Shown here: positions 22,716 through 43,385 of the stretch, piece by piece
Position numbering within the stretch: position 1 is the first letter of the stretch
How the letters are laid out: every line of letters starts with the position of its first letter
From: Candidatus Woesearchaeota archaeon
Lineage (GTDB): Archaea > Nanobdellota > Nanobdellia > Woesearchaeales > SM23-78
DNA length: 46,563 nucleotides
NCBI GenBank assembly: GCA_016935175.1
Contig: JAFGRK010000002.1
Coordinates: forward strand, 1-46,563
Direction: 5' to 3'
Notes under the pieces: model-generated
Database searches by the model: none
Seen by the model: only the letters and a program-made list of their open reading frames with translations
Told to the model about the DNA's origin: nothing
Program-made: the position numbers and the translations under genes

Positions 22716-22865
22716 AGCACTAGCAGTTAATAGGCTCCTAGTTAAATATTTTGCTTTGCATAGTTAAAAGAGCCCCGCCGGCGAGGCGCAAATAATGTTT
22801 CAGTAGAGCAATATTTCACTATTATTTGCCATTATTATCTTCAATATAGAAACTAAATAAGCGAA

Positions 22866-22935
22866 AAAAAGAGAGGGACCAGGCCAGGAAACCATACCTT
22901 TGGCTTTCACCAAAGAAGCTTCCTAGCCTGGCTTA
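22866..22935 (-). terminator. Putative intrinsic terminator for the minus-strand gene array (compound hairpin followed by T-tract on the minus strand)
   Basis: GGCCAGG..CCTGGC and inner CTTTGG/CCAAAG stems. On the minus strand the hairpin is followed by TCCCTCTCTTTTTTTCGC. It lies about 110-180 bp downstream of the flotillin stop. Confidence 0.4.
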
Positions 22936-23042
22936 GCATCCCACGCTAAACTTCCCCCTCATTTCTCAAAATAAAATTCGGGTTTAATCTCCTTTCCACA
23001 TCTTTCTTACATCGAAGAGCGATTCAGCATCCCTTCTTGCTG

Positions 23043-24452
23043 TTAGCTCTTCTTGGCCTGCTTGCCGTCATCCTTCTTGACTTCCGCGGCATCCTCTGCG
23101 TCAGGCAGCTTCTTGCCGAGGAAATCCGGAAGCTGCAGGCCGGCGACTTCCATGATGCTGGCCAGCGGAGGGATGGACTTCACGATGCCAGAGATGAACT
23201 TGGCCGTGATAGGGGTTCCGTCGCCGTTGCCTCCGCCCATGTTGTCCCAGACAACGATCTTGCCGAAGTCGATGTTCTTGATGGCGTCGGCGTTGATGGT
23301 AGCGAGCTCCTTCATCTGCTCGATGATGAGCATGGTGGCAGCGGCCTTGGGATCTCCCCCGACAGAATCAACCAGCTTCTTGAAGCCCTCTGCCTTCTTC
23401 TCGAGGATGGCGAGGATGCCCTGGGCCTGGCCTTCCATCTCGCGCTGAACCTTGAGACCCTGCCCCATGCCTTCCTGCTCCAGGCGGATCTTCTCAGCCT
23501 CAGCTTCGTTCCTGATTTTCTCCTTCTGGAGCTCAGCAGGGACAACGATATTGATGGACTCAGAGACCTTTTCCCTTTCCCTACGCGCAGCCTCAGCTTT
23601 TTGCTCGGCCACATAAGCTTCTTCCAAGGCCTTGGCAGCGTTGACCTTCTCGGCGCTCACAGCCAGCTTGTCGGCCTCAGCCACCTTTTCCCGGCGCTCA
23701 GCATTGGACTGCGCGATCTTGACCTTGGACTTGTTCTCGCCCTCGACGGCCGTGGCATCGGCAGAAGCGACGTTGATGCGCTCAATCTTCTTGGCATCAG
23801 CCTGCCCTGTGGCGCCGTCTCTCTCCTTCTCGGCGACGTCGACGCGTGCCTGCTGGATTGCGTTAGCAGCAGCTTTCTTGCCCAGGGCCTCAATGTACCC
23901 GCTTTCGTCCGTGATGTCCTTGATGTTGACGTTGATGAGCTTCAGGCCCAGCTTCTTCAGCTCGTTCTCAACGTTGTCCTGGACTTTCTTCTCGAAAATC
24001 TCGCGATCGGTGTTGATCTCCTCGATGTCCATCGTGGCCACTGTGGTCCTGAGCTGGCCGTAGATGATCTCCTCGGCATTCTTTTCGATCTCCGGCCTCT
24101 TCATGCTCAGGAGGCGGGATGCAGCCAACTGCATTATCTCAGGCTCAGTGGAGATGGCAATCGTGAACCTGGAAGGCACATTGATGCGGATATTCTGCTT
24201 GGAGAGCGCGTTCTTCAGGTCGATATCGATGGTCATGGGTGTGAGATCCAGGAAGCCATAGTCCTGAATCATAGGCCAGATGAACTTGGCTCCTCCGTGC
24301 TGGCACTTGCCGGCTTGCTTGCCACCGATCTTTCCCCAGACGACCAGGATCTTGTCAGAAGGGCACCTCTTGTATCGCGCCATGGCGACCAGGAAGGTGA
24401 CGAAAGCCATGACTACAAGAGCTGCGACCAGATACAACCAAGATAAGCTCAT
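23043..24452 (-). CDS. Flotillin (SPFH/Band-7 domain, FloT/YqiK-like)
   Basis: 469 aa. It has an N-terminal TM, an SPFH domain, then a long Ala/Glu/Lys-rich coiled coil (EAEKIRLEQEG, AEQKAEAARREREK). Confidence 0.9.
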   Translation of the reverse strand: MSLSWLYLVAALVVMAFVTFLVAMARYKRCPSDKILVVWGKIGGKQAGKCQHGGAKFIWPMIQDYGFLDLTPMTIDIDLKNALSKQNIRINVPSRFTIAISTEPEIMQLAASRLLSMKRPEIEKNAEEIIYGQLRTTVATMDIEEINTDREIFEKKVQDNVENELKKLGLKLINVNIKDITDESGYIEALGKKAAANAIQQARVDVAEKERDGATGQADAKKIERINVASADATAVEGENKSKVKIAQSNAERREKVAEADKLAVSAEKVNAAKALEEAYVAEQKAEAARREREKVSESINIVVPAELQKEKIRNEAEAEKIRLEQEGMGQGLKVQREMEGQAQGILAILEKKAEGFKKLVDSVGGDPKAAATMLIIEQMKELATINADAIKNIDFGKIVVWDNMGGGNGDGTPITAKFISGIVKSIPPLASIMEVAGLQLPDFLGKKLPDAEDAAEVKKDDGKQAKKS

Positions 24453-24552
24453 TCAATTTCTCCTTGTTGATGAATTTTTTTGCCAGTTAGCAATGGTAAA
24501 ACTGTTTCTAGCAAATCGCCACGAAGTTTTTACTCCTTGTGCTCCTCCTTTC

Positions 24553-25218
24553 CTATGTGTTGAGAGAGGTCACGATGAGCGTCTTTCCGCCGATGATCCC
24601 TGTGATCTTGCACTTCTCGTAAGGGTGAAGGGTGGTTTCGCCCTTGGTCATCGCGTCAAAATCCATGAGCCTTCCCTGGATCTTAACCTCGACCTTGCCA
24701 GTGCCCTTCATCTCTCCGTCGATGCGGATGGTCACAGTAGCCTCTTGGCCAACGGCGTTCTGGATGTTGACTGTGCCGTCATCTTGGAGCTTGGAAAGCA
24801 AGCCCAGGATAGCCATGTTGATGACGACAAACCCAAAGCCGAAGGCCAAAGCCAGAATCACAGACCAGGCATCTGCCAGTCCAGAGCCCTTACAGGCAAT
24901 GCCTGACCATCCGAGCCCCACGAAGAACGATATCAGGTTGCGGATAGTGAGGTATTGCAGAATCGAGCTGTATCCTCCGCTGTCATCATGGCTGCCATGG
25001 GCGTCATGACCGTGAGCATCGCTGATGCTGCTGTCACTGATGCCCTCGTGGGAACCTGAGAATCCATCGTGGCCATCAAAGCCCCCGACATCAGTGTCAT
25101 GATGGCCCATGCCGACCAGGAAAAGGATGAACTGGATCAGGAAAAGAAGGCTTGCGATTAGCGCTGATCCCCAGAAGAATTGGAGAATAGGCTCCAATCC
25201 ATTCCACCACTCATTCAT
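24553..25218 (-). CDS. NfeD-like membrane protein (flotillin-associated; OB-fold C-terminus) with His/Asp/Gly-rich insert
   Basis: 221 aa. It has TM helices and a C-terminal beta-rich domain (TVTIRIDGEMKGTGKVEVKIQGRLMDF) typical of short NfeD. It is upstream of and co-directional with flotillin, as in yuaF-floT. Confidence 0.7.
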   Translation of the reverse strand: MNEWWNGLEPILQFFWGSALIASLLFLIQFILFLVGMGHHDTDVGGFDGHDGFSGSHEGISDSSISDAHGHDAHGSHDDSGGYSSILQYLTIRNLISFFVGLGWSGIACKGSGLADAWSVILALAFGFGFVVINMAILGLLSKLQDDGTVNIQNAVGQEATVTIRIDGEMKGTGKVEVKIQGRLMDFDAMTKGETTLHPYEKCKITGIIGGKTLIVTSLNT

Positions 25219-25438
25219 TAGGTTCTCCTTTTAAGAGTGTTTTTTCCATCGGCCTAAGGAAGAAAGACAGAACTATCATAGCCCTTAGCGTTCTTCCCTT
25301 CTAATCACCCTCAATTTTTCCTTCTTGCCCTAAAGCTCCTTTCAAACACTAGATTATTGTCACGTAATCATCTTTAGTGTTATTATTGGATTGCTTTCTC
25401 ACATTAAGAAAGCCCTCTCCCTTCCTCGGCTCGTTTGG

Positions 25439-25663: not shown

Positions 25664-25737
25664 GATGTTGCCTCCTTTTCTCTTTTTGGATTATCTATCT
25701 AAACAACGCAGCGATGAGTCGCGCCAGTCATTAAGCT

Positions 25738-26211
25738 TCAGCTTCCCTGCTGCTTCTTGGCTGATTGCAGGATGCTGACGAGGTTCTTGCCTTCCAGCTT
25801 GTTCTTTTCTAGGGCCTTCTGCTTGAGCTCCCTGATCTTGCCTTCCAGGGCCTTCTTGAGCCTCTTGAAACCATCGGTGTCATTGAGGATATCATCCTCG
25901 CAGTCGTACTCCTTCTGATCACCGATGCTGATGGAGAGGTAATAAGCCTTGTCGGGCTCAGGTTCAGTTGGCCTGAAAGGGGAGTCGGTGATGAAGGAGA
26001 GCTTGATGATCGTGACCTCTTGCCCCATAGGAGGTGTGTCCTCGGTCAGCTTGAACTCCACAGCTGCCCAGAACTTGCCTTCGATGGAGTCGCCTGCTGG
26101 CTTGAACTCCCACTTAGGGCCGGGGTTCTCCAGGATGTCAGAGAAGAGGTTGCCGATGAGATCGAGCTGATCCCTGTCGAAGAGCGAGATTTTTTTTTTC
26201 TCTTTGCGCAA
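25738..26211 (-). CDS. Hypothetical protein with C-terminal coiled coil
   Basis: 157 aa, no recognisable domain. Confidence 0.5.
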   Translation of the reverse strand: MRKEKKKISLFDRDQLDLIGNLFSDILENPGPKWEFKPAGDSIEGKFWAAVEFKLTEDTPPMGQEVTIIKLSFITDSPFRPTEPEPDKAYYLSISIGDQKEYDCEDDILNDTDGFKRLKKALEGKIRELKQKALEKNKLEGKNLVSILQSAKKQQGS

Positions 26212-26340
26212 TGTGGTTTTCCTCCTTGTAGATTATTTATAACAAAAAAAGAAAGGGCTTACTTGGCCTCTGCTTTTTTTTAGAGCATTAACTTTTCAGC
26301 CCTTCTCTTGGAAAACTGTGCAGGCCTCTTTTTCTGGCTC

Positions 26341-27399
26341 TTACCTTGGAGCTACCAGGACCAAGGCTTCCAGGATGAAAATAGCACCGATGTCCAAAGC
26401 TTCATTCTGGATGTACTCAACTGCGAGCTTCATCCTGTCTAAGAAGACTTGTGCAATGCTTTGCGACGGCCCGCGAGGATGGTGAGGAATCTGGTTGGGA
26501 TAGGCTTGGTTGATCTCAGCGAGCATTCCTGAGATGAGCCTTGCTCCTTCCTGGAATTTGCCCTGCTTGAAAAGCTCCTTGATAGGCAATAGTTGGTCCA
26601 CAAAGCGCTGCTCTAGCATCACGAACTTGGGCTTGAGCTCAAGGATGGCGTCTATGAGCAATTCTGCTCCTTGGCTATGGTTGCCTTGCCTGAACTGCTC
26701 CATGCCTTCCATGATGAAAGCCCTGTGTGCGCCTTGGAAATCTCCAGGGTTCTTGTCAGGAGGCTGGCCTGGCCTATCGCTGGGAAACCTCTTGCGAGGA
26801 GGGCGAGGATGCTCTTTCTCCCATTGCTGGCGCAGATCTTCTGCTTTGCTGATGTGCTTTGAGAACTTCTGCCTGGCTGCTTCCAGCTTTTTCTCTGCGA
26901 TGGGAATGTAGTGGTTGATGTCCTTCTCAGCCTCTGCTCCTGTCACATCTAATGTGGCCTTGCCCTTGGTCATCTCGACTTTGAAGCTCGGAGCAGCTTT
27001 CTCGCCCGGCCTCTGCCTTTCTCTCGTGATCTCGTAGCGCTTGTTGCCTTCTCTTACCCAGACCTTCTCGACGCCCATCATCTGGTTGTACTGCACGCCG
27101 AAGCGCAAGGTTTTCAGGTTCTTGAGCAGGAAGATGCTCTTGTATTCGTGCAGGGCTTGACCTGTGTGGTGCCTGCCTAAGCCCTGGGCGTACACGATGG
27201 ACAAGGCCTTGAATGGCTCTGTCTTGGTGATCCTGAGCCCGATGGGAGCCTTGCTCCTCTCCTGGTAGTTGATGGTCGTTCTGGCCTTGGTGAGAAGCAG
27301 GTAGGCTGCGATCAGGGTGGCGCATATGCTGGCGATGATGATAAGCCAAGCTTTGCCTTTCCTGGGCAAAGGCTGATTGATGGTTGCGGTATCGTTCAT
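26341..27399 (-). CDS. Membrane-anchored hypothetical protein (single N-terminal TM)
   Basis: I place the start at the internal Met (MNDTATINQ..., ATG at 27397-27399), preceded by GGAG 9 nt upstream. The longer track ORF (to 27609) would overlap the upstream permease by 185 nt. Confidence 0.55.
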   Translation of the reverse strand: MNDTATINQPLPRKGKAWLIIIASICATLIAAYLLLTKARTTINYQERSKAPIGLRITKTEPFKALSIVYAQGLGRHHTGQALHEYKSIFLLKNLKTLRFGVQYNQMMGVEKVWVREGNKRYEITRERQRPGEKAAPSFKVEMTKGKATLDVTGAEAEKDINHYIPIAEKKLEAARQKFSKHISKAEDLRQQWEKEHPRPPRKRFPSDRPGQPPDKNPGDFQGAHRAFIMEGMEQFRQGNHSQGAELLIDAILELKPKFVMLEQRFVDQLLPIKELFKQGKFQEGARLISGMLAEINQAYPNQIPHHPRGPSQSIAQVFLDRMKLAVEYIQNEALDIGAIFILEALVLVAPR

Positions 27400-31017: not shown

Positions 31018-31476
31018 TCAAGAAGGATAAGTAGCCTCGACCCTTTTTGACCTGCAAAGATACGCGTACCAAAAGCCGAAGAAGGCAAGGTAATAAGCAG
31101 TTTGCTTTAGCAGGAGGATTATGAGCGCTGAATTAGTGTAAGAACTGAAGCCACCGATAAGGGGATAAGTTAAGGTGAGCAAGCCATAAGCTATGCAGAT
31201 GAGCATGAAAGCCTTGGCAATCCCCACTGCGCCTTTTCTTCTTAGCCAAAGCCCTAACCCTGCGTAGAGGCTGAAGATTATCAGGGCGACAACCAGTAAT
31301 GAGTCAAGGATAACCAAGGCCTTTTCCTGAGGGTTGTGGAACGAGGGATAGCCGACTTCTTCCCTGAGCGAGCTTGCTAAGGTGGTGCTGCGCAGCAGCG
31401 GGATGATGATGGTGAGTATGATGCACAGCACAAGAAGCCAGCCCTTGACTCCGTAGTATTTGTTCTCTTGAGCCAC
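31018..31476 (-). CDS. Hypothetical 4-TM membrane protein
   Basis: 152 aa, SD-led, hydrophobic segments. Confidence 0.55.
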   Translation of the reverse strand: MAQENKYYGVKGWLLVLCIILTIIIPLLRSTTLASSLREEVGYPSFHNPQEKALVILDSLLVVALIIFSLYAGLGLWLRRKGAVGIAKAFMLICIAYGLLTLTYPLIGGFSSYTNSALIILLLKQTAYYLAFFGFWYAYLCRSKRVEATYPS

Positions 31477-31529
31477 GAGCGCCTCCTTTCTTTTTGCCTA
31501 GAACTGTGAAAATGAATACTGCCCCTGAG

Positions 31530-31823
31530 CTAAGGCCTCCTCCTGAGCCAAGGATACTTTTCCCTGGGGCGAGGATGCTCCTGGATTTCAGGATAGTATT
31601 CCTTGCCTCCGATGTGAAGAGAAAAACCAATCGGGGATTGGGCGTCCTTGCTTGCAAAGGTGAGGAATGATCTCTTGCAGCAGATGCATCGAAGGTAATC
31701 TGAACCGTGGTGCCTGAGCTTGATCTCAGAGTGAGTGTACCCGCAGTAAGGGCACCCATACCTTTCATAGTCAGACTGAAGAATAGCCATGACTAGGTAA
31801 GGCTTGGTTTTCGTGGAAATCAT
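31530..31823 (-). CDS. Small zinc-ribbon protein (CPYC...CICC)
   Basis: 97 aa with a GGAGGGAG SD. Confidence 0.5.
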   Translation of the reverse strand: MISTKTKPYLVMAILQSDYERYGCPYCGYTHSEIKLRHHGSDYLRCICCKRSFLTFASKDAQSPIGFSLHIGGKEYYPEIQEHPRPREKYPWLRRRP

Positions 31824-32007
31824 GATGAAACTCTCCCTCCTATTGGTGTCTTTAATTTTTTTCCCATATTATAATTAAGCCTTTTTCACGCCAAGGCTAA
31901 TCCGCGAAAAGGCAGTATAGGAATAGGTGGAGGAGAGGCTTACTCGCCCTGCTGTTAGCAAAAGTTTTCAGCCTCTCCTACCAAAATGTGCTTCTCCCCC
32001 TGGGTTT

Positions 32008-32244
32008 CTAGGAGAAGAGCATGGCCAGGCAGGCGACCAAGACCATCAACAAGATGAAGGCAAAGGCTCCTGCTACTCCAAGCGCGATGCCGATAAGGGT
32101 GAGCAAGAAAGCTAAGCCCGGGAAGAAAATGACTAGTAATAGCCCGATGATAAGCCACTTGCCCAGAGTCATCTTCTTGCCCTTGATCACCTTGATCAGG
32201 ACGAACAGGAATAGCCCTAGAAGAATGAGCTCACCAACTCCCAT
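32008..32244 (-). CDS. Small 2-TM membrane protein
   Basis: 78 aa with an AAGGAGGTGA SD. Confidence 0.5.
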   Translation of the reverse strand: MGVGELILLGLFLFVLIKVIKGKKMTLGKWLIIGLLLVIFFPGLAFLLTLIGIALGVAGAFAFILLMVLVACLAMLFS

Positions 32245-32312
32245 TTGCTAATCACCTCCTTTCATAGCCGGGATAAATTCATGAGATGATGCAAGCTTGG
32301 CGAAAAGCTGCT

Positions 32313-32642: not shown

Positions 32643-32708
32643 GTTACCTTTCTCCTTGTTGAGATTAGATTATTTATGTGAAAGCGAAATGCAGTTCTGA
32701 AGAAAATT

Positions 32709-33643: not shown

Positions 33644-33700
33644 GCAGAAATCTCCTTTCCCGTTGAAATTAGTTATTGTAGGGGCGCCTGGCAGATACGC

Positions 33701-33988
33701 CTATAATACGAGCCTGCTCAGCAGCTCATAAGCAGTCCATGCCCGCTTGCAGGAAGGGCAGGCGACAAAGATGCTCCATTTTTTTCCGTACTTGTCGTAG
33801 AACCCTTCTGCTCCTTCCTTGTAGCCTTTGAAATCCTTGAGATTGAAGCTGTGCTTGCAGCTGCAGGTAAATGCCTTGTTGCGCAGGCTCTTGATGATTT
33901 TAGCTACGTCCCCGCCGAAGCAAGGGTTGAGCACTGCCTCTGATGTGCTGCTGCCGTCTATGCCATTACCATTGCCATATTTGTTCAT
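33701..33988 (-). CDS. Small Cys-rich protein (CSC...CPSC zinc-ribbon-like)
   Basis: 95 aa. Confidence 0.45.
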   Translation of the reverse strand: MNKYGNGNGIDGSSTSEAVLNPCFGGDVAKIIKSLRNKAFTCSCKHSFNLKDFKGYKEGAEGFYDKYGKKWSIFVACPSCKRAWTAYELLSRLVL

Positions 33989-34211
33989 CTATTCTCCTTT
34001 TATGTGAAAAGCATGATTGGTGTTGTTATGATAGAAGCGAAAAAACAAGACAAAAGGAAAAACAAACCTTGTAGGGAGGGGGAGGCTAGGCCTGCACCAA
34101 AAGGAGGGGTTTGATATTTTTTTGAAAAAAAGCCTGCCTCCCCCATACTAGCTATTGCTAACCCTCCTTTTTTGCTAATATTCGCTAATCCTCTTCTTTT
34201 AGATGAAGAGC

Positions 34212-34643
34212 CTAGATGAAGAACCCTCTCTTATACCAAGGCCTGTAAGAATTGATCAGCTCATGTGCCTTGCCTAGGAATTCCTTTGTCTGTGCCTCGT
34301 CAGAGTATTCTGCGTCCTCGAGCTGGTTCATGATGATGTCAATCTCAACATCAGTTGCAGGTGATCCGCGGTCAGGGTCTTGGCTGGTCCCTCTCTTAAG
34401 TGAAAGTCCTAGCTCTGCAAAAATCTGTTCTGAATCGAACAGGGAATTCTTCTTCTCACGGCAATTTATGTAAAGGTAGCATAAGCTAATGCTGATTGCT
34501 GTGATGGCAAGGATGATATGCCAAGGCTTGTTATTGCCTAAGAGCAGGATGATGCAGCTGGCCAGAATGATCTGAACCGCAATTCCTGCCTTGAAGCCAA
34601 TCGCGGAATAGGTTTTCATGAGAAGCCTCCCTCCTTTTCTCAT
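34212..34643 (-). CDS. Hypothetical membrane protein with acidic cytoplasmic domain
   Basis: 143 aa. Confidence 0.5.
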   Translation of the reverse strand: MRKGGRLLMKTYSAIGFKAGIAVQIILASCIILLLGNNKPWHIILAITAISISLCYLYINCREKKNSLFDSEQIFAELGLSLKRGTSQDPDRGSPATDVEIDIIMNQLEDAEYSDEAQTKEFLGKAHELINSYRPWYKRGFFI

Positions 34644-34655
34644 GTTTTGAAAACC

Positions 34656-34946
34656 TTAGAACACAGGCCCTATGATGGCTTCTTCCTCTGAGAGATGGAG
34701 AACCTGAAAAGTGTACTTGTATTCCCGCGCTGTGAAAAGCCCGCCTTCTTCTGCGCGAAAGCCATGCGCCTGCTTAGGGTTGTCTGCGTATGAAAAGATG
34801 AAATGGCCAAGGCCAAGCCTGTCAAAGCCAAAGTACATGAGATTGATCTGGAACCCGTCAGTGAAGGTGATGACTGCTAGCACTCTTTTCTTGAGCATGA
34901 GCTTTTGGCTGATGGTAAAAACATTGACTCCTGGAATAAGCTCCAT
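34656..34946 (-). CDS. Hypothetical soluble protein
   Basis: 96 aa. Confidence 0.45.
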   Translation of the reverse strand: MELIPGVNVFTISQKLMLKKRVLAVITFTDGFQINLMYFGFDRLGLGHFIFSYADNPKQAHGFRAEEGGLFTAREYKYTFQVLHLSEEEAIIGPVF

Positions 34947-35032
34947 GGATTTATCCTCCTTATCTATCTGCTATAAGAAAAATAATAAGAGGAATAGCAG
35001 GGCGCGTTGCTGATTGAATCGAAATGAAATCG

Positions 35033-35233
35033 TCAGAAATTGCCGAGCAGTCTTGCGATTCCCATGGCAATGGCGACAAGGCCGCCCATGACGAAAGCCA
35101 GGAAGACGAGCGCCTTGTCAGCCTTGGCTACACTCTTGCTCTCAGCCCACTTGTTCAGGATGAACGGGATCTTGATGAGCACGTAGCCTATGCCGATGAA
35201 TACAAGGCCTGTGATAGCGGTGATGGGTTTCAT
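35033..35233 (-). CDS. Small 2-TM membrane protein
   Basis: 66 aa. Confidence 0.45.
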   Translation of the reverse strand: MKPITAITGLVFIGIGYVLIKIPFILNKWAESKSVAKADKALVFLAFVMGGLVAIAMGIARLLGNF

Positions 35234-35236
35234 ACT

Positions 35237-35539
35237 TTATTCTCCTCCTCTGGATTTCCCTGCTTCAGCTCGGGTGATCCCGAGAAACAAGGATGCTTCC
35301 TCGACTCTTCTGATGCATTCCTCGCAGCCTTCCTCGTAGAGGTGGTTGTCCACGATCCTCTTCTCTGCCTCTCCCAGCTTGCCGAGCAGGTAGGCGTTGA
35401 TGGTCTCATCGTCGAGCTGCGCAGGGCAGATTCTTTGGTTGATCTCTTGCTCAGGCTCCAATCCAAGGCTGTGGCCTGTTGAAAGCATTGTGTCGATAAA
35501 GAATTCCCCTATGAGATCTTGGTTTCCCATAGCAAGCAT
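35237..35539 (-). CDS. Putative anti-sigma-factor-like protein (zf-HC2-like H-x5-C-x2-C)
   Basis: 100 aa. AYLLGKLGEAEKRIVDNHLYEEGCEEC resembles the N-terminal motif of zinc-binding anti-sigma factors. Confidence 0.4.
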   Translation of the reverse strand: MLAMGNQDLIGEFFIDTMLSTGHSLGLEPEQEINQRICPAQLDDETINAYLLGKLGEAEKRIVDNHLYEEGCEECIRRVEEASLFLGITRAEAGKSRGGE

Positions 35540-35614
35540 TTCTCCTTTTATATGGGGATATCTATTCTGTTATGGCGGCTAGCCTATTGAAAAGGCAAGT
35601 ACCTGTTGAAAACC

Positions 35615-35806
35615 TTAGCAAAGCTTTGACACGAGCAGTAGCAGAAAGGACAGGATGATCAGCACTGCTGGAAGCACGAACCAGAAGGCTCTTTTGCAGT
35701 GCTTCTCATCACCGGTCTTCTTGTGGAGCTCACGAAAGAAGCATCCGAGTGACACTGAACTGATGGTTAGGACCATGACGGGGAGCATGATTCCTAATGG
35801 TTTCAA
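35615..35806 (-). CDS. Small membrane protein
   Basis: 63 aa. Confidence 0.4.
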   Translation of the reverse strand: MKPLGIMLPVMVLTISSVSLGCFFRELHKKTGDEKHCKRAFWFVLPAVLIILSFLLLLVSKLC

Positions 35807-35852
35807 GCAGTTCTCCTTTCTTTTTTCAGGTTATTCCTCTATTAGCATGCTG

Positions 35853-36311
35853 TCAGCATGCAGGCCTGTTCTCCTTTAAGTGCGAGATGAAATGGCAGGA
35901 GCCGAACTCAAGGTGTTGTAGCTGGGATTCCAGGGTATTGAAAAGGTTCTCGACGCCATGGTAGATGATGCTTGTGTCCTTGCACTTCTCGCAGAAAGGA
36001 GCTATAGGGCAGCCCTCCATGATAGGGATGTCTGCGAGCAGGTCTGCTGCCACTCTTAACCCGTCATTTATAGACCTCCTTTTTAACTCTGCCTCTTGGT
36101 GCGCTATGTTAGGGTTGGTGACATCAGACACTCGCTTGAATTCTTGCTCCAGGAAAATGAGCTTCTTCTTCAGTGCGATGAGCCTGTCTGGCTCTTTTGG
36201 CTTTTGCTGATCAGCAGCAGGCGTTTTTGCAGCCTCTGCTTTTCCTTGGAGGATGAGCTCGAAGCCTTGGAGGAAACTAATAGCTATCTGGATAATCTTT
36301 ATTCTTTTCAT
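35853..36311 (-). CDS. Secreted Cys-containing hypothetical protein
   Basis: 152 aa with a signal-peptide-like N-terminus and a CPIAPFCEKC cluster. Confidence 0.5.
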   Translation of the reverse strand: MKRIKIIQIAISFLQGFELILQGKAEAAKTPAADQQKPKEPDRLIALKKKLIFLEQEFKRVSDVTNPNIAHQEAELKRRSINDGLRVAADLLADIPIMEGCPIAPFCEKCKDTSIIYHGVENLFNTLESQLQHLEFGSCHFISHLKENRPAC

Positions 36312-36532
36312 ATGGCTCTCCTTTCATATTACTCTCAGCTTTGCAACGAGCTGATGCTTTAACTTATGGTTTATATTGAACTGATTGATTATCAGGCTGT
36401 TATGCAGTTGTTAATGCGGGTGGAAATGGCAGAGGAGAGGAAGGGGATTGGTTCCTGCTCCTTTCTTGAGGAATCAGTTCTTCTAACCCCCCTTCACTCT
36501 TGCTATTTCAGGAGTTGAGGCTATGCTTGAGG

Positions 36533-38311
36533 CTATGCTCTCCTTGAACGAGACTCTTTGGCTGAGCTATTCTTCCTGAGCATTTTCCTGAGCTCCTTTT
36601 CCTGCTGCTTGGCTTCCTTCTCTCTCCTCTTCCTGATAGCCTCCTCAAGCTTCTTCCTGTTCTGCTCCCTTTTCCTCTCCCACTTCATCAGGGCTTCCCT
36701 TCGTTTCCTCAGCTCTTTTTCCTGATCGCTCTCTGCTCTCTCTTGAGGCTTCTTAGGCTCGGTATTTTCATCGGGGCTGGAGTCGTTTTGCCGCTTCATT
36801 GAGATTCTGAAAAGAAAGCCTCTTCTCTCTTTCTTCTCGCTGCCAGGATAGGTGAGCACTGGCCTCCTGTCATAGATGCTCAGCTTAGGATTAGTTAGCT
36901 CTGGGGTTGCAGGGAGAACCTGGGTGTCTTCCAGCTCTTCTTTTTTTAGCTCAGGCTCCGGGGTTGCTTCGGGTGTTGTCTCATCATTAGGGGTAGGAAC
37001 TAGCGTATCCTCTTCCTTAAGAGCTTCCTCGATGTCCTTGGAGAGATTGTCATCCTCAGTAAAGGTTAAGTTAGTGATAGCGCTGGGAAGGATGGTAGGA
37101 GTTGATGGGGTTTCAGGCTCTTCTGGTGCTTTCTCTTGCACTGACTCCTCATTAGGAAGGACTTCACTAGCGAGATTACCTGCAGAGGGAGCATCATGGT
37201 TCTTGAGCATTCCATTGATGCCTGCTTTTAGGTCATCAGTGGCTTTTTGCATTTCCTTATCTAGCTCTTCATCGCTAGGCAGAATGCTCGTGATTGGAAG
37301 CGGAAGAACTGGCGGCAGTTGTATACGATTGGCAGGAGATTCAGCTTCTTGTTCATCATCTTCAGCATTAGGAGCTGGCTCTGGAATGTCAGGGATGATC
37401 CGGGTTTCTTCTTTTGCTTCTTCCTCAATATGTTCTTGTTCAGGCTGATCCTCAGTAGGCACTTCCCTAAGAGGAATAACAGCAAGAGTAGATGTAGGAA
37501 GAAGAATAGGATCCTTGGGCTGCTCAGCAGCTTGCTCTGTATGATTTCCCTGAGCTTTAGACTCATCTGCCTCTTCAAGCTCATCATCTTCATCATATAC
37601 CTTAGGCAGGTTGAGCCTGGAGATGTCATTGCCAGCCCAGACATTGCCACACTTAGGGCAGACAAAGACGATTATGAAAAGATCTCTTTCCAGCTGGTTG
37701 TCATAAAGGATATTCGCGCTTATTTCCCTGTTGAAGTCCTTGAAAAGGTTGTTCCACTTGGTAAGGAATGAGTGGTCGCCGCACCTGACATCCCTTCCTA
37801 AGAAATCTTGCTTGACATAGAACTGGGTGCGAGGGCTGAGGTTCTCCTTTTTGACCTTGCTGAGCAGCAAGTGCTTGTTAAGGTCAGTTAGCTTGACTTC
37901 CTCTTCAGGCTCAATTGGCTTAGGCTTACTATCAAGCTTAGCTGCTGCCTGGCATCCATTTATGTAGTTGATCAATGATTGGCTAAGTGAGTCAAGCTCT
38001 TTCTTCTTGAACTCCAACAAGGTGCCCTTGACATCCCTCTTGGCGTCTTCTTGAAAAATGCTCAGCCGATCGTCGATGTCATCTTTGATGCATTGGAGGC
38101 TTCGGCCCATTAACTCCTTGACAGCTTCCTCTGCGCTTTCATGGGAGCTTACCTTGACGTGCTTCTTAACGTGCTTTTTCATGGAACGCCACAGGATAGT
38201 TCCGAACAGGAATCCGATAAGAAAAGGGATGACCAAGGTCCTGACTTCCTCATAGCTCCAGACCTCTTGAAAGAACCCAAGGATAGCGTTGAGTGCTACC
38301 TCGAAATCCAT
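36533..38311 (-). CDS. Large hypothetical membrane protein: N-terminal TM, zinc ribbon, acidic Pro/Glu-rich low-complexity linker, basic Lys/Arg/Glu coiled-coil C-terminus
   Basis: 592 aa. The start is placed at MDFEVALN (ATG at 38309-38311, GGAG SD) rather than the longer ORF. Confidence 0.6.
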   Translation of the reverse strand: MDFEVALNAILGFFQEVWSYEEVRTLVIPFLIGFLFGTILWRSMKKHVKKHVKVSSHESAEEAVKELMGRSLQCIKDDIDDRLSIFQEDAKRDVKGTLLEFKKKELDSLSQSLINYINGCQAAAKLDSKPKPIEPEEEVKLTDLNKHLLLSKVKKENLSPRTQFYVKQDFLGRDVRCGDHSFLTKWNNLFKDFNREISANILYDNQLERDLFIIVFVCPKCGNVWAGNDISRLNLPKVYDEDDELEEADESKAQGNHTEQAAEQPKDPILLPTSTLAVIPLREVPTEDQPEQEHIEEEAKEETRIIPDIPEPAPNAEDDEQEAESPANRIQLPPVLPLPITSILPSDEELDKEMQKATDDLKAGINGMLKNHDAPSAGNLASEVLPNEESVQEKAPEEPETPSTPTILPSAITNLTFTEDDNLSKDIEEALKEEDTLVPTPNDETTPEATPEPELKKEELEDTQVLPATPELTNPKLSIYDRRPVLTYPGSEKKERRGFLFRISMKRQNDSSPDENTEPKKPQERAESDQEKELRKRREALMKWERKREQNRKKLEEAIRKRREKEAKQQEKELRKMLRKNSSAKESRSRRA

Positions 38312-38516
38312 GGTTAAACTCCTTTCATCCTTATTGATGTGCATGATGATACTGTTTATGTTAAGAAGAATTAATAGTGAATGAAGCATAAATCATTCTA
38401 TTTATCTGAAAGCCTGCCTTTGGCTGTTATATGCGGGGAAAGGCGCCTTGCACAGGCCTGCCTTAGCTTCTCGACAGCAAAGCGCCTGAAAAACAGCTTG
38501 CAATCCAGGCAAAAAG

Positions 38517-38687
38517 CTAATCCTCAACCACTTCAGCCACAATCACTTCTTGTTCGGGCTCCTCAGGCCGGGCAAAAGGCTTCTCCTTCCTGGTCTCAGG
38601 GAAAAGGACTTGCTCAGTGATCTGGATCTCGTTCTTGAAATCATCTTCCCTGGGGGTTTCCTTCAAAGCTCTATTGTTTCTTATCAT
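38517..38687 (-). CDS. Small acidic hypothetical protein (56 aa), tentative
   Basis: My own translation is MIRNNRALKETPREDDFKNEIQITEQVLFPETRKEKPFARPEEPEQEVIVAEVVED. GGAGAG lies upstream. It is below the track length cut-off. Confidence 0.35.
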   Translation of the reverse strand: MIRNNRALKETPREDDFKNEIQITEQVLFPETRKEKPFARPEEPEQEVIVAEVVED

Positions 38688-38732
38688 TATGTGGTTACTC
38701 TCCTTTCTTTTCTAATAGAAATGTTATAGGCT

Positions 38733-38954
38733 TTAATTAGCCCTTATGTCATGGATGTCAATCTCGGCCAGGGCTGCTTCTAACTTGGCTACTTCTGCCG
38801 ATCGCTTGCGCTCCTCCTCACCTTTCCATCTCTGCCCTTTCTTGCGAGCCCTGATTCTCAGGTGGGCATAATAGCTGGTCGCGTAGATGAGGAAGACAGC
38901 CAAGGCAATGAGGAATATGCCTCCTGAAGCCAGCCAAGGGCTTGCGTTGATCAT
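38733..38954 (-). CDS. Small membrane protein
   Basis: 73 aa. Confidence 0.45.
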   Translation of the reverse strand: MINASPWLASGGIFLIALAVFLIYATSYYAHLRIRARKKGQRWKGEEERKRSAEVAKLEAALAEIDIHDIRAN

Positions 38955-39014
38955 GGATTTAGCCCTCCTTCTTTGCCTTTTCTTTAAGTGGCAAAAATCC
39001 TAGAGAAACCCTAG

Positions 39015-39362
39015 TTATCCCTCCTCTTTTCCATCGCCATCTTCCTGCTTGGGTTGTTCTGAGCAATCTTTATACACAGCCTTGTTTTTGCGTGCTATCC
39101 TAAAAAAGCAGCTTGTCAAAATCAAGACAAAAATTATGAACACCAAGCTTATACAGATGATGCTAGCAACCAGAAAGAATAATACTGGAACAGCGACCAG
39201 GAGGATAAGAGATTTCCACCACCAAGCCAGATGGATGATGCCCCAGATCTGAAAGCCAGCAAATATAGCATAGGCCAAGGCTCCCAGAACAGAAAGCCCC
39301 ATTACCACCCGGGAACACCAGCGGGATATCTTATCGAGATTTTGTTCTATGTAGAAACACAT
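39015..39362 (-). CDS. Hypothetical membrane protein
   Basis: 115 aa. Confidence 0.5.
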   Translation of the reverse strand: MCFYIEQNLDKISRWCSRVVMGLSVLGALAYAIFAGFQIWGIIHLAWWWKSLILLVAVPVLFFLVASIICISLVFIIFVLILTSCFFRIARKNKAVYKDCSEQPKQEDGDGKEEG

Positions 39363-39401
39363 ATTAGATCTCCTTTCACAGGGTGATATGTGACCAGAGG
39401 C

Positions 39402-39632
39402 TTACTTCTTCTTCCTGAAGACCAGGGTGCAGTCGGGAAGCTTCATGTTAGGCCTGGGCCTGGAGAGGAGGAAGCCGAGCCTGGCCATGTGGCTGAAGAA
39501 CTTCTGCTCGTCGATGTACATCTTGTTGATGACCGAGATCCTGGTGGCCTTGGCGGTCTTGCCCTTGTTTGAGAAGACGATCCTGTAGCCGTGGATATGA
39601 AAGGACTTGGGATTCGCGGATTCTTTTTTCAT
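39402..39632 (-). CDS. Small basic hypothetical protein
   Basis: 76 aa. Confidence 0.4.
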   Translation of the reverse strand: MKKESANPKSFHIHGYRIVFSNKGKTAKATRISVINKMYIDEQKFFSHMARLGFLLSRPRPNMKLPDCTLVFRKKK

Positions 39633-39700
39633 GACAGTCTCCTTTCTGTCCTTTGGATTATTTATGTGAAGAGCTAGTGCTCTTGAAACGCTAAGGCTTC

Positions 39701-40282
39701 TTATGCTTGCGGGAGGAGATTATCCTTGATCTGCCCGATGGAAAGCTCTCCCTGAGAGATGAGGCTGACCAGCTCAGCAGCGTTCTCGAGGTAGTTGAAC
39801 TGGGCGGTCTTGATGTTGATGTCGTTCTCATCGAAGACCAGGTACTTGACCTCGATGGAGAAAAAGCCGTGCTTCTTCTCGAACTTGTTGTTGGGATCGG
39901 TGAGCTTGGCTGTCAGGAGCAAGTCATAGCGATAGTCGTATGTCTTGCCCATGTAGTTGACGAAGTGGATCATCTTGCTTTCCTTGTCGATCTCCACCTT
40001 CGGAGCGCGGTTCGGCTTGAGCATGTCGGTGAGCTGCTTGGATTTTTTGAAGTTCTCCCATAAGGAGATCATGAGACCCCAATTGAGGATCAAGAAAATG
40101 ATAAGCGTAACGCTAATTCCGAAGTCTACTAACTCGGGGTTGCGAATCATACCCCTGATTACCAGAAAGTTTAAGCATAGGAGGCCGAGCCCGGAGACTA
40201 GTGAAAAGATGAAAGTCCTCCTGGGCCAGATAGCGGCGAAGTGAAGAGCCCTGGGTGAAGGGCTGAGGTCGATGGGATTCAT
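39701..40282 (-). CDS. Hypothetical membrane protein (2 TM + soluble domain)
   Basis: 193 aa. Confidence 0.5.
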   Translation of the reverse strand: MNPIDLSPSPRALHFAAIWPRRTFIFSLVSGLGLLCLNFLVIRGMIRNPELVDFGISVTLIIFLILNWGLMISLWENFKKSKQLTDMLKPNRAPKVEIDKESKMIHFVNYMGKTYDYRYDLLLTAKLTDPNNKFEKKHGFFSIEVKYLVFDENDINIKTAQFNYLENAAELVSLISQGELSIGQIKDNLLPQA

Positions 40283-40339
40283 GTTGATGCTCCTTGTTTT
40301 GTTTGGTTTTGGGTTATCTATCTTGACTCAGGCTTGCTG

Positions 40340-41158
40340 CTAGGCTTCCTGCTTCTTGGCTTCTTCGGGCTTTTTCTTGAAGAGAAGCTCGTAAGCCCCG
40401 AAGCCTGTGAGCCCACCGACAACAGCGCCGATGAAGAGCTTGAGGGCACTGCCGCCAGGGATGATGTAGCCTATGAGCACGCCAGCAGCAGCATAAGACA
40501 TGCAGATGAGCCGCTCGTCAGAGTGGATGAGCACGAAGACTTTCTTGACGAACTTGAAGATGATGGCAAAGAACTTGGCGACCTTGACAGCTGCCCTGGG
40601 AATCCACTTGGTGAAGAGCTTGGGGAATGAAAGGATGTAAAACCTGAAGGGATTGAAACGCTTGATAAACTCCCTAGATATGTCCTGATGCTCTGCTTTT
40701 CCGAAAAAGCTTGAGCCCTCAGTCTTTTGCTGTGCAAGGATCATGAAAATTGATGTGAAGACGAAGCCAAGCGGATAGAAGACAACAAACACCGTGATTG
40801 TTAGAGAGGCAATCTTAGGAGCTGTATTGGTAATTGCACCAATAATCAAAAGGATTGCTGCAAAAAGAATCCAAATACCGATTATCATTGACAATACCAT
40901 GTTGTGGCAAGCCAATAATTCCAGGAAGCGCCCGCGCCAGTTCTCCTTGTTAAATTTGAAGCTGATGATCTGCTTCCAGGCAGCCTTGACAGCGGCTTTG
41001 ACCTGCTTGAAGTCGTAGGCAAGGTAGCCGAAGAGGCCGCCGAGAGCCATGCCGATGAGGCAGGCGAAAAAGGACGAGTCGCTGATGGAAAGCGCTGCGA
41101 TGAGGCCGATGATGGCTCCAAAGGCGCAGGCCAGAAAGACTTTGAAAGAGGTTTTCAT
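40340..41158 (-). CDS. Hypothetical polytopic membrane protein
   Basis: 272 aa. Confidence 0.55.
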   Translation of the reverse strand: MKTSFKVFLACAFGAIIGLIAALSISDSSFFACLIGMALGGLFGYLAYDFKQVKAAVKAAWKQIISFKFNKENWRGRFLELLACHNMVLSMIIGIWILFAAILLIIGAITNTAPKIASLTITVFVVFYPLGFVFTSIFMILAQQKTEGSSFFGKAEHQDISREFIKRFNPFRFYILSFPKLFTKWIPRAAVKVAKFFAIIFKFVKKVFVLIHSDERLICMSYAAAGVLIGYIIPGGSALKLFIGAVVGGLTGFGAYELLFKKKPEEAKKQEA

Positions 41159-41191
41159 GATGGTCTCCTTTTTTTTTCTTCCCGTGGTTTA

Positions 41192-41710
41192 CTAGTTGGT
41201 TACCACAAAAATGAGATAGCCGAGGCCGATAAGCACAATGACAAGAATCCAGCCCACTGCGATAAGCACCTGATAAGGGAACCACACGATATTTTTCGGG
41301 GTTGTGACCTTGGCTCCTTGCTTGGTGTGGTCAATGACGACTTCCCGGATCTTCATCAGGGCGTTGTCGTTCTCGATCTGCTCCAGCTCTGTCTTGGGCT
41401 CGCCTTTCTGCAGAATTCGGTCAGCAGTGTTCTTGGCACCTAGGATTTGTTTGTACCAAATCTCCAGGTCAGACTCTGATGTTGGGAAGAGGATAGCGGA
41501 GTTTCCTTTGGTGAGGTTATGCCTCTCAATATAATCGAGGGCATGGCTCAGGAATTCATTGGCCAGCTGGACTGTCGGCGCGTCCCCTGTGAGCTTGAGA
41601 TAGGAAGTGCACCCCTTCTTCATGCTGTACCAGCGGGTGATGCACAGGACACTCAGGAAGATGAAAAGAATCACGCCTAGGGTGACCAGAACTTTTCCGA
41701 AAGATCTCAT
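41192..41710 (-). CDS. Hypothetical bitopic membrane protein (TM at both termini)
   Basis: 172 aa. Confidence 0.5.
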   Translation of the reverse strand: MRSFGKVLVTLGVILFIFLSVLCITRWYSMKKGCTSYLKLTGDAPTVQLANEFLSHALDYIERHNLTKGNSAILFPTSESDLEIWYKQILGAKNTADRILQKGEPKTELEQIENDNALMKIREVVIDHTKQGAKVTTPKNIVWFPYQVLIAVGWILVIVLIGLGYLIFVVTN

Positions 41711-41858
41711 TGTGTTTCTCCTTTTTTGTTTAGGATTTATTTATGTGAAAGCAATTAAGCTTTTCTATGTGACGCAAAAGCGCCCTGCCAGTACTCTATA
41801 TTTAACTGTCAAGTTGCCAGGGCGCTGAGTAGAACGGCTTGGTGTTTTCACCAAAACT

Positions 41859-42167
41859 TTAAATGTGATACTTGACTTCGAGGAACTCGCCGTATTTCTT
41901 GATCTGCTTGTCCAGCCACTTCTTCCAGTTTCTGCGATTAACTCCCTTGGCATTCACCTTCTTGAGATGGGGGAACTGCTTGAGCAGGTCTCGCTTGCAT
42001 ATGGAAGCAGCAGCAAGGAAAGCATGCGGAAGATTGGATTCAGGCATGTGAGCCATGAAAAAAACGATTTTTTCCAGGCCCTCTCCTCCTTCGGGAGAAA
42101 CCAGTTTGCCAGTTGTTACTGACAGCACATCTCCCAGGTGGAACTTTTTGGTTTGATGCTTTGACAT
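41859..42167 (-). CDS. Hypothetical soluble protein
   Basis: 102 aa. Confidence 0.45.
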   Translation of the reverse strand: MSKHQTKKFHLGDVLSVTTGKLVSPEGGEGLEKIVFFMAHMPESNLPHAFLAAASICKRDLLKQFPHLKKVNAKGVNRRNWKKWLDKQIKKYGEFLEVKYHI

Positions 42168-42231
42168 AGATCTAACTCTCCTTTTAGTAAGTATGGGTTA
42201 CATCAGGATTGTGGCTCTTGAAAGCTTCCTG

Positions 42232-42660
42232 CTAGATCTCCCACTTGCCCTTCATCGACTCGACAAAGTTGACCAGTTCAGCCCTTACCTTCCAGGCGCT
42301 CTCAAAGATGACGTCCTCCCCTTTGTACTTGGCAGGGTAGTCAGTGTATTGGATGAGAAGCCTGCTCCTGGTCACGCCTTCTGCGTCCTTGCTCTGAGGA
42401 TAAGCTTTTTTCCAGAGCTGCTTGTGCAGCCTGACATAGCCTGAGGTGACGATGTAAACCTGCTCGTTGATAGCTTCGTCAATGAAGGGTCCTTCGATGA
42501 TGAGAGGCCCGTCAGAGATGAGGCTATTGATCATGAACGGCTTGTACTCGCTGCTCGGCGACATGACCTGGATGCGTTTCATGAACGAGCAGTTGATTAC
42601 CATGATTCCTGCCAAAATGACAAAAGCAAATTTTTTCATGATAGTCTCCTTTCCTTTCAC
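42232..42660 (-). CDS. Putative lipoprotein
   Basis: 142 aa with a signal peptide and VINCS lipobox-like motif. Confidence 0.5.
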   Translation of the reverse strand: MKGKETIMKKFAFVILAGIMVINCSFMKRIQVMSPSSEYKPFMINSLISDGPLIIEGPFIDEAINEQVYIVTSGYVRLHKQLWKKAYPQSKDAEGVTRSRLLIQYTDYPAKYKGEDVIFESAWKVRAELVNFVESMKGKWEI

Positions 42661-42683
42661 TAGGTGAGATAAATAAAATTATA

Positions 42684-43298
42684 TCAAACAGGTTCTTGTG
42701 AGAACTCTGAGATTTGGGTTTTACGGTTACGTAGAAAAGCGATTATGGCTACGCTTAAGTTTCCAAGAAAGCCGTTGACAAATGGGTACAGCAGGGGAAG
42801 CAGCCCTTGGTAGTTAAGGATGTTGGAAGCTACAAGCAGTGAATAGGCTAGAGCGCTTATTGCCCATGAAAGGGGTTTTTCTCTGAGGGTTCCTTTAAGT
42901 AGTCCTTCCAGGGTAGGCCACCATGCTACAAGGAGTGAGATCTGGAGTACGATATTGGTTTGCTGGTTGTTGCGTGTGATGAACCAGTAGGTGAAGCTGA
43001 TAAGTGCGAAAACCATGGTGATGATGCCGCTTTTGCCGATTGGGCCGAATTTCCTTTTGGTGAACGAGTAGGCAACAAGAAAAAACATTGCTACAGTGAT
43101 GACTATGGGAAGAGTAGTCTTGAACCAGTTTCCTTTTACAACATCGTGGTAAGTGAAGGTGTTAAGAGTGAGTACTGCGAGGGCGATGAGCCAGGTGATT
43201 GGATGAGGTGTTGAGCCGCCTTGCTTGATTTGCCTGAAATAGATAAAGGGGACGGGTAAAAAGATGATGCCTGATAAGAGTCCTAATAGGTCGCTCAT
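42684..43298 (-). CDS. Hypothetical polytopic membrane protein (first gene of the array)
   Basis: 204 aa. Confidence 0.55.
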   Translation of the reverse strand: MSDLLGLLSGIIFLPVPFIYFRQIKQGGSTPHPITWLIALAVLTLNTFTYHDVVKGNWFKTTLPIVITVAMFFLVAYSFTKRKFGPIGKSGIITMVFALISFTYWFITRNNQQTNIVLQISLLVAWWPTLEGLLKGTLREKPLSWAISALAYSLLVASNILNYQGLLPLLYPFVNGFLGNLSVAIIAFLRNRKTQISEFSQEPV

Positions 43299-43385
43299 TG
43301 TTTTTTTTCCTTTCTTTGATGTTTGGTTTAAAGAAATAAAAAGAAGAAGTTTTGAAAATCAAAAATCCAAAATTACGTATTTCAA

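Follow-up and report, generated by a model that had tools for sequence, protein, structure and literature searches.

The middle of a 46,563-nt contig from a Candidatus Woesearchaeota metagenome-assembled genome (MAG) holds a block of genes, from 22.8 to 43.3 kb, that recurs at the same locus in other Woesearchaeota, is co-inherited with its surroundings, evolves fast yet stays coding, and has a distinct composition common to the genomes that carry it. We analyzed this contig in its entirety and refer to it as the window. The reading that we favor, tentatively, is that the block is a clade-conserved, fast-evolving accessory island of foreign ancestry at one Woesearchaeal locus; its foreign origin is the part that we infer. 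A life attached to other cells and a patchwork genome are ascribed to DPANN archaea, and how they house and retain foreign genes is poorly known. The flotillin and other block proteins are deposited in GenBank as MBN24586xx-87xx (locus tags JXB28_; 100% identity) under the name Candidatus Woesearchaeota archaeon.

A sequence-only reading of the window had proposed a compositionally distinct block between archaeal-type flanks, with both boundaries in noncoding DNA, and the GC, GC3 (GC at third codon positions), ATA/Ile, and tetranucleotide profiles all break as it supposed. GC content is 0.453 in the left flank (positions 1 to 22860), 0.498 in the block, and 0.432 in the right flank. The rise falls mostly in 22.86 to 30.72 kb (0.532, with peaks of 0.57); from 30.7 to 43.3 kb the value is merely 0.476. 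ATA makes up 0.32 to 0.67 of the Ile codons in all 20 of 20 flank genes (median, 0.47), compared with a block-gene median of 0.10 (Mann-Whitney p = 2e-8), and the block-versus-flank differences in C3 (C at third codon positions), GC3, and GC each have p <= 4e-6. The codons that rise in the block are GTC, ACC, CTC, and ATC. At four-fold-degenerate sites on the coding strand, C goes from 0.26 in the flank to 0.46 (23 to 30.7 kb) and 0.37 (30.7 to 43.3 kb), and G holds steady at 0.16 to 0.18. The tetranucleotide break is real and moderate (r = 0.95 inside the left flank versus 0.81 to 0.91 from flank to block), and relative synonymous codon usage (RSCU) of block and flank correlates at r = 0.68 to 0.76, a deviation in composition of the kind by which genomic islands are recognized. 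Sharper than the GC break is the codon-usage switch, which lies exactly in the two noncoding gaps. The block nevertheless keeps several habits of the host: it encodes Arg chiefly by AGG, avoids AGT, prefers CCT, and is equally depleted in CpG (NCG codons, 0.017 in both block and flank).

The flanks were placed by their genes. The best relatives of the ELP3 gene at 6008 to 7699, among the 80 matches listed for a flotillin and ELP3 query (all of them ELP3 loci), are 70 to 76% identical and come from MAGs labeled mostly Woesearchaeota or Nanoarchaeia; the closest shares synteny with five flank genes of the window. The EndoQ gene near the left edge of the block is identical (100%) to an NCBI Woesearchaeota protein, and its homologues are 75 to 80% identical. 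Because the ELP3 relatives, the flank synteny, and the NCBI protein names agree, we assign the flanks to Woesearchaeota of the DPANN archaea, in keeping with the archaeal type first ascribed to them.

Both junctions are continuous in an independent assembly. Logan contig L001 (6,091 bp) corresponds to window positions 17940 to 24030 and crosses the left junction unbroken, and Logan contig L002 (4,033 bp) corresponds to 40391 to 44423 and crosses the right one, each at 100% identity. These contigs were assembled from run SRR13394437, from which the MAG might itself derive, so recurrence in other samples is the stronger argument. A search for the same junctions in related genomes, which the sequence-only reading had recommended, found the host-to-block transition at the same locus in three other contigs, all from other samples, and from the ATPase gene bordering the block, through the noncoding leader, to the block edge the window shares about 86% DNA identity with one of them (L098). 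Mis-assembly is thus effectively excluded, and the block truly belongs to the chromosome of a Woesearchaeote; the metagenomic mis-join that had been offered as a second explanation falls away.

Relatives of the locus were fetched via homologues of the EndoQ gene, and L098 (JGI Ga0315286_10000011, 128.5 kb) via a metagenome scan. In L087/L088 (ENA ERZ27247851 and JGI 3300032401) and L089/L090 (ENA ERZ27248148 and Logan SRR9617952), EndoQ is directly followed by a run of small minus-strand genes with GGAGG Shine-Dalgarno (SD) sequences and block-type codons. The blocks of L088 and L089 have ATA at 0 to 0.15, high ATC and GTC, and a GC3 of 0.5 to 0.8; on the other side, genes are rich in ATA and without SDs. 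The run in L088 extends from a MacB gene (59% identical to that of the window) to the gene of a DUF87 ATPase of 590 aa, which matches the window's bordering ATPase at 62% identity over the C-terminal 129 aa. In L098, nine homologues of window block genes lie in the same order downstream of the ATPase gene, at 45 to 81% identity, and codons and SDs switch directly after that gene. An all-against-all comparison linked the four blocks by additional shared small genes in roughly collinear order, with some genes replaced; MacB and small genes are common to the window, L088, L089, and L100, also collinearly, and a homologue of window 32313 to 32642 is among the L100 genes after EndoQ. The RSCU values of the four blocks, from four genomes, correlate at r = 0.84 to 0.95 among themselves and only at 0.43 to 0.76 with their own flanks. 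L085/L086, whose EndoQ is 79% identical, have ordinary host-type genes after EndoQ and no block there, although a precise empty site, with the ATPase gene next to the EndoQ side, was not seen. The flotillin, the NfeD-like protein, two proteins of unknown function, the ABC ATPase, and the adaptor of the window were not seen in the relatives' blocks so far fetched, and for the 8 block proteins looked up (10 queried) no relative of at least 90% identity from another sample was found.

Divergence from L098 dates the block relative to its host. By the Nei-Gojobori method, the synonymous rate dS is 0.72 to 0.76 for the ATPase gene and its partner and 0.42 to 1.08 for six block genes, and the ratio of nonsynonymous to synonymous rates (dN/dS) is 0.07 for the flank genes versus 0.25 to 0.48 for the block genes; these values are approximate because the genes are small and the correction is simple. 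Since block dS is like flank dS, the block has descended with its flank since the L098 split. Block protein divergence also scales with host divergence, and both observations argue for co-inheritance and not for independent arrivals. The block is coding and under purifying selection, and its proteins change 4 to 7 times faster than those of the flank.

Next, we consider where the recognizable genes come from. Flotillin homologues peak at 55 to 60% identity, and those with a taxon name come without exception from bacteria (Bacteroidales, Clostridia, Desulfobacterota-type, and an unclassified digester bacterium); the contig that holds the top-scoring match also has a bacterial look, carrying genes for an 88-aa S15 and a MerR-family protein. 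The best-hit check suggested for the two parts of the window thus gives bacteria for flotillin and Woesearchaeota/Nanoarchaeia for the flank ELP3. An exhaustive search for MacB relatives among 1.84 billion representatives returned one cluster, P0258, at 72% identity and all others at or below 52%. The MacBs of the window, L088, and P0258 are mutual best hits (72/59/60%), with the rest at or below 52 to 54%, and the nearest named relatives of the next-best matches are bacterial. A single recent insertion from a bacterium finds no support here, since the window MacB groups with the block MacBs of other Woesearchaeota ahead of all other representatives.

The P0258 cluster occurs on a 10.9-kb NCBI contig (GCA_041489565.1) and on a 4.28-Mb contig (ERZ25039515 contig_12062). 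Both carry a trio of ABC ATPase, MacB, and 191-aa protein genes, 66 to 72% identical to window genes (L102, 2494 to 5083, on the former; L103, 9285 to 11853, on the latter). The codon usage of the 4.28-Mb genome is CpG-rich with CGN for Arg, and the RSCU of its trio correlates with the Woesearchaeal block at r = 0.82 versus 0.60 with its own genome. We rejected this organism as the donor because its usage is of another kind and the MacAB trio is foreign there. It looks like a recipient or co-recipient of block-type DNA, which suggests that such DNA also moved into a non-DPANN organism. A higher-GC Woesearchaeote was rejected as the donor as well: among the Woesearchaeal ELP3 loci scored, strong SDs were rare in all, and the top RSCU match to the block reached r = 0.80 and was without them.

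The G+C-richer part of the block encodes two recognizable modules (Table 1). As in the bacterial flotillin-NfeD operon (FloT/YuaG with YuaF), a Band_7 flotillin lies directly downstream of a small, putatively NfeD-related protein with two transmembrane (TM)-like segments. Unlike in that operon, the pair is found in an archaeon, the flotillin scores 145 bits against the FloT equivalog model, under its 700-bit cutoff, and the partner is without a Pfam NfeD hit. This partner is 33% identical over 215 aa to a PF01957 NfeD protein upstream of a bacterial flotillin (L084) and 30% identical to the equivalent gene in L083. The open reading frame (ORF) antisense to flotillin (23037 to 24446, plus strand, 469 aa) is a shadow ORF and not a gene, as judged from its GC at first codon positions of 0.77. 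The 157-aa and ~352-aa proteins that follow had no Pfam hit.

The second module resembles MacAB-type or YknXYZ-like efflux in that a MacB_PCD and FtsX permease, a separate ABC ATPase, and an RND_mfp/HlyD adaptor are combined in one operon, with overlapping or abutting genes. It differs in that ATPase and permease are split, no outer-membrane factor is present, and the host has no outer membrane; no OEP-family gene for a TolC-type exit duct was found, just a weak, sub-cutoff OEP hit within the adaptor. In relatives the system is reduced to a permease alone (L088) or to a 23-aa remnant (L089, 11753 to 11821, just after EndoQ) that matches the MacB C terminus at 83% where L088 has the full gene. 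This remnant is weak evidence for a decayed gene, because the C-terminal motif is conserved in all MacBs. Of the bacterial-flavored modules named in the sequence-only reading, then, flotillin, MacB permease, ABC ATPase, and adaptor stand by Pfam and NCBIfam, and NfeD is a putative assignment from sequence identity; the zf-HC2 anti-sigma motif is not confirmed, as neither 35237 to 35539 nor its neighbors had a Pfam hit at E <= 0.01.

From 30.7 to 43.3 kb the genes are ORFans, except for DUF2569, DUF7736, and a weak DUF6962 hit. TM-like segments are present in 21 of the 31 block proteins, and CxxC pairs in several. The 618-aa protein carries a single TM segment and a CPKC motif resembling a zinc ribbon; its long middle is acidic and rich in Pro, its C-terminal tail is rich in Lys, Arg, and Glu, and the tail alone is recognizable in L098.

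The block also differs from the flanks in its expression signals. An AGGAG or GGAGG at -18 to -4 was found for 25 of the 31 block genes and for 0 of the 20 flank genes, and every credible block gene lies on the minus strand. The claim that every gene is on that strand with a strong GGAGG SD therefore holds for the strand and was slightly overstated for the SD. The bacterial-type terminator reported at the end of the block was found, as a GC-rich hairpin and T-run that follow the last block gene on the minus strand. The block shows no enrichment of sigma-70-like promoters (16 found, 14.7 expected). A motif, TTCACATAAA (often TTTCACATAAATAA), occurs on the coding strand five times upstream of block genes (32673, 33999, 38401, 39661, and 41740, minus strand), 10 to 30 nt 5' of start codons, in the interval that separates the SD from the gene before it. 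Tolerating one mismatch gives 11 matches in the window, compared with 3.6 expected. The motif is also present in L098 at 12323 and 17244, neither the L088 nor the L089 block showed it, and a similar motif, TTACATAAAAGGAG, lies 5' of the flank gene at 16398 to 16841.

On its upstream side the block is bordered by a conserved leader, an ATPase gene, and the gene of a coiled-coil partner. The ATPase and partner are 90% and 91% identical to their L098 counterparts and 77% and 68% identical to those of L099. The ATPase scores 59 bits against CedD (cutoff, 600), 30 against VirB4_plasma (590), and 22 against TraC (567), all far below the family cutoffs; it can be placed at the level of the DUF87/HerA superfamily, with weak similarity to a PHROG annotated as a large terminase. 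CedD itself is an ATPase for DNA import that was recently described in Sulfolobales (PMC11868833). Like the ATPases of the Ced/Ted import systems and the archaeal VirB4 ATPases (PMC11868833; PMC9905601), the bordering ATPase is a member of the HerA/FtsK/VirB4 P-loop superfamily with weak model hits; unlike them, its scores are an order of magnitude under the cutoffs, and no VirB6/CedA-like or pilin-like partners were recognized. We regard the resemblance to CedD as a weak lead and not as membership, and the link of the ATPase to the content of the island is only positional. In L098, six tandem paralogues (6891 to 9960; 154 to 187 aa, soluble, with ...KYxKPxxDxW ends) lie between the coiled-coil and ATPase genes; they had no Pfam hit and are absent from the window, where the two genes abut.

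The leader is about 85% identical to that of L098, a conservation on par with the ATPase coding DNA, and three of its sequence blocks are kept in L088 and L099 too. Repeated CGGAAA(A)C motifs occur in it in all four genomes, as does a stretch of ~50 nt that hardly varies (GATTCTTCACGGATAAACCCGGAAACTCTTGAAAnACGTGATTT); the equivalent coordinates are 11771 to 12228 in L098, 20471 to 20910 in L088, and 5845 to 6206 in L099. It had no Rfam match. A structured RNA was considered and rejected (single-sequence fold z = -1.2, consensus fold -3.9 kcal/mol, negligible covariation), and a DNA-level control region is the likeliest explanation.

Table 1. Features of the block, its junctions, and its borders in the window
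Feature	Position	Strand	Remarks
EndoQ-family gene	17739..19091	+	Host-type core gene; far-side anchor of the island locus in relatives
SDR-domain gene	19135-20397	+	Pfam; host-type codons, ATA/Ile 0.41
Ser/Thr kinase-TPR gene	20520-22715	-	Pfam; host-type codons, ATA/Ile 0.49; last flank gene before block
Left junction, noncoding	22716..23042	-	Holds hairpin and T-run 22772-22787
Flotillin (SPFH/Band_7), 469 aa	23043..24452	-	PF01145 at 1.4e-30
NfeD-like membrane partner of flotillin, 221 aa	24553..25218	-	Two TM-like segments; without Pfam hit
Two proteins of unknown function (157 aa; ~352 aa with membrane anchor)	25738..27399	-	Block-type codons, strong SD
MacB permease	27425-28675	-	MacB_PCD PF12704 at 2.7e-46 and FtsX PF02687 at 1.1e-20
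ABC ATPase	28675-29388	-	ABC_tran at 1.1e-31
Membrane-fusion adaptor	29454-30716	-	HlyD_D23; TIGR01730 (RND_mfp) 151 bits vs 94.9-bit cutoff
Small-gene array, ~24 co-directional genes	31018..43298	-	Mostly membrane or CxxC zinc-ribbon proteins
DUF2569 gene	31018-31476	-	Within small-gene array
618-aa acidic/Pro-rich protein	36533-38389	-	Within small-gene array
DUF7736 gene	41859-42167	-	Within small-gene array
Multi-TM first gene, 204 aa	42684-43298	-	Block edge at leader
Conserved noncoding leader (441 bp)	43299..43739	-	Between ATPase gene and first block gene
HerA/VirB4/CedD-superfamily ATPase	43740-45509	-	DUF87 at 4e-8, PDB HerA at 1e-4; host-type codons
Coiled-coil partner, 152 aa	45543-46001	-	Host-type codons; with ATPase, conserved upstream island border

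Two flank genes lie between EndoQ and the block. The SDR gene has an N-terminal extension of ~150 aa, and its neighbor encodes a PknB-type Ser/Thr kinase with TPR and FlgO-like regions. Neither had a homologue in any relative locus fetched, including near EndoQ, and they may be older, fully ameliorated acquisitions. In L087/L088, the region upstream of EndoQ (1 to 7577) carries RHS/YD-repeat toxin-like and transposase genes (Transposase_20, Y2_Tnp), so the neighborhood is plastic on the EndoQ side too.

Under the reading of a clade-conserved island, the locus would be delimited by the ATPase gene and the 0.4-kb leader on one side and the EndoQ region on the other. Its foreign ancestry would account for the bacterial-type envelope families and for an SD-led, co-directional style that is rare in Woesearchaeota, and the island would have passed down with its host from the divergence of the L098 lineage, if not earlier, gaining and losing genes, with the G+C-richer segment at 23 to 30.7 kb as possibly its newest layer. 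From the gene order and the SDs, the genes would be read as SD-dependent polycistronic units from the leader. Through their products, the envelope would gain a flotillin/NfeD scaffold, an exporter of the MacA-MacB-ABC type, and ~24 small proteins of membrane or zinc-ribbon type; given that membrane proteins predominate, a position at the surface touching a partner cell is plausible. Islands of horizontally acquired genes are reported from the ARMAN-2-related Mia14 genome (PMC5498576), likewise as atypical accessory segments of a small symbiotic archaeal genome, with membrane-associated genes of non-native ancestry. By comparison, the present island occupies one locus across relatives, co-diverges with its hosts, and has one shared codon usage, a uniform SD-led strand, and no identified donor.

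Several observations weigh against this reading. The case for a foreign origin of the genes at 30.7 to 43.3 kb is one of style alone, because they have no detectable homologues outside these loci. The MacB transfer may run out of the island and not into it, because the trio is foreign and block-like in the 4.28-Mb genome, the site of the closest MacB known from beyond Woesearchaeota. At the equivalent position, the low-GC relatives L099 (6207 to 6998) and L100 (5142 to 6557) have genes with host-type codons; the two L099 genes after the ATPase keep strong SDs, and the L100 genes are without them. The blocks of L088 and L089, whose EndoQ is 75% identical, are as deviant as that of the window and agree with it in codon usage. 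Since a foreign signature that is neutral would be expected to fade, blocks undiminished at this distance are less well explained by passive inheritance than by maintained selection or a common mobile pool. Marks of insertion are missing from the window: there was no integrase or transposase hit in Pfam or PHROGs for any block protein, no tRNA, no Rfam family, and no att-like repeat, the longest direct repeat common to both junctions being 9 nt. The sequence-only reading had likewise seen no integrase, transposase, or tRNA at the edges. The cause of the persistently distinct composition is the point on which the island reading and its rivals chiefly differ.

The strongest rival, to which we give appreciable though clearly lower probability, is that the block is a mobile element (provirus, plasmid, or conjugative type) in a shared pool, with the ATPase as its motor and the leader as an attachment or control region. 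This would explain the unidirectional, small, ORFan, membrane or zinc-ribbon genes, the single codon usage of four blocks in four genomes that is unlike every host flank, the mosaic gene content, the weak resemblance of the ATPase to CedD, VirB4, and TraC models and to a large-terminase PHROG, the block-type trio inside an unrelated 4.28-Mb genome, and the absence of the block beside EndoQ in L085. Integrated archaeal viruses and plasmids share the gene architecture of 30.7 to 43.3 kb, the ORFans, the fast evolution, and the host-distinct composition. They differ in their hallmarks: besides the integrase, tRNA target, and att repeats, no replication, capsid, or relaxase gene was recognized in the block by Pfam and PHROG scans. 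A viral origin was not backed by the database searches. The only PHROG found was phrog_15963 (unknown function), for one 102-aa protein; DUF7736 had no tblastn match in INPHARED; and a peptide-pattern scan of IMG/VR with the ATPase, MacB, and eight concatenated ORFans, which detects close relatives only, found none, distant MacBs of 35 to 54% aside. Block dS that equals flank dS, protein divergence that tracks the host, and the host-type codons of the ATPase also speak against a mobile element.

Somewhat less probable again is that the block is native, its operons having been selected for C-ending codons (G34 tRNAs), ATA avoidance, and strong SDs under a translation regime of its own, for example one in which expression is high or conditional. 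In favor of this, the block is co-inherited and still deviant after a dS of ~0.8, equally so in farther relatives; the shift is specifically to coding-strand C and not a simple GC shift; the AGG and CpG-poor habits of the host are kept; and ATA is also avoided in elongation factor 2 of one Woesearchaeote (0.09). High-expression codon bias was nonetheless rejected, since no block-like usage is seen in the S12, NusA-like, RNA polymerase, and DnaK genes of relatives, a thin check made on a few genes of relatives, with no translation genes from the window's own MAG. Ribosomal protein S12 of L005, a locus whose usage correlates with the window flank at r = 0.95, has ATA at 0.38 and ATC at 0.25 and is without a strong SD. 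No block-like gene was found among the ORFs of at least 90 aa in the nine closest ELP3 loci. Against a native block there are also the bacterial nearest relatives of the flotillin and MacAB families and the host-type codons of L099 and L100 at the equivalent position.

One recent bacterial insertion of ~20 kb into this genome is improbable. The sequence-only reading had favored a horizontally acquired island of possibly bacterial origin, and the foreign composition and the bacterial nearest families (flotillin, MacAB-type) uphold that part. The bacterial-type modules, strong SDs, hairpin terminator, and higher G+C, especially at 23 to 30.7 kb, would suit a recent arrival, as would the lack of near-identical relatives in other samples and of six of the window's genes in the other blocks. 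A single, recent, unameliorated insertion fails on the synteny of 30.7 to 43.3 kb with L098, where the flanking ATPase is 90% identical, on flank-like dS, on the presence of MacB in L088, on an AGG-dominated, CpG-poor usage that is like the host and unlike the sole large genome with a close MacB, and on the missing mobility genes and repeats. It is contradicted for the whole block and tenable at most for 23 to 30.7 kb. That sub-segment alone could be recent, because its genes from flotillin to adaptor, except for MacB, have not been seen in relatives' blocks.

More speculative still, and slightly less probable, is the idea that the island could be a stable, separately tuned expression compartment of an episymbiont, whose genes would have stayed SD-led and rich in C-ending codons over a long co-descent with the host because they serve another translation regime; in its extreme form, modeled on the Agrobacterium T-DNA, it would be delivered to and expressed in the partner cell by the neighboring VirB4/HerA-like ATPase system, with the leader as a control or transfer signal. 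The chance that the window is an assembly chimera, with two mis-joins placing a bacterial fragment inside an archaeal contig, is negligible: its source is a MAG and the break is sharp and noncoding at both ends, but the two spanning Logan contigs, the same transition at the same locus in three assemblies from other samples, and the DNA identity to L098 across the border contradict it.

Taken together, these results describe a membrane-protein island carried at one place by related Woesearchaeota, whose shared codon usage and SD style persist after substantial divergence. For the curation of MAGs, the window is a caution that a sharp composition break with two clean junctions need not be a chimera. 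The locus also bears on which surface proteins of a symbiont change fastest, and it offers a concrete, comparable case in which composition kept by selection or by a shared mobile pool can be set against composition that fades by amelioration.

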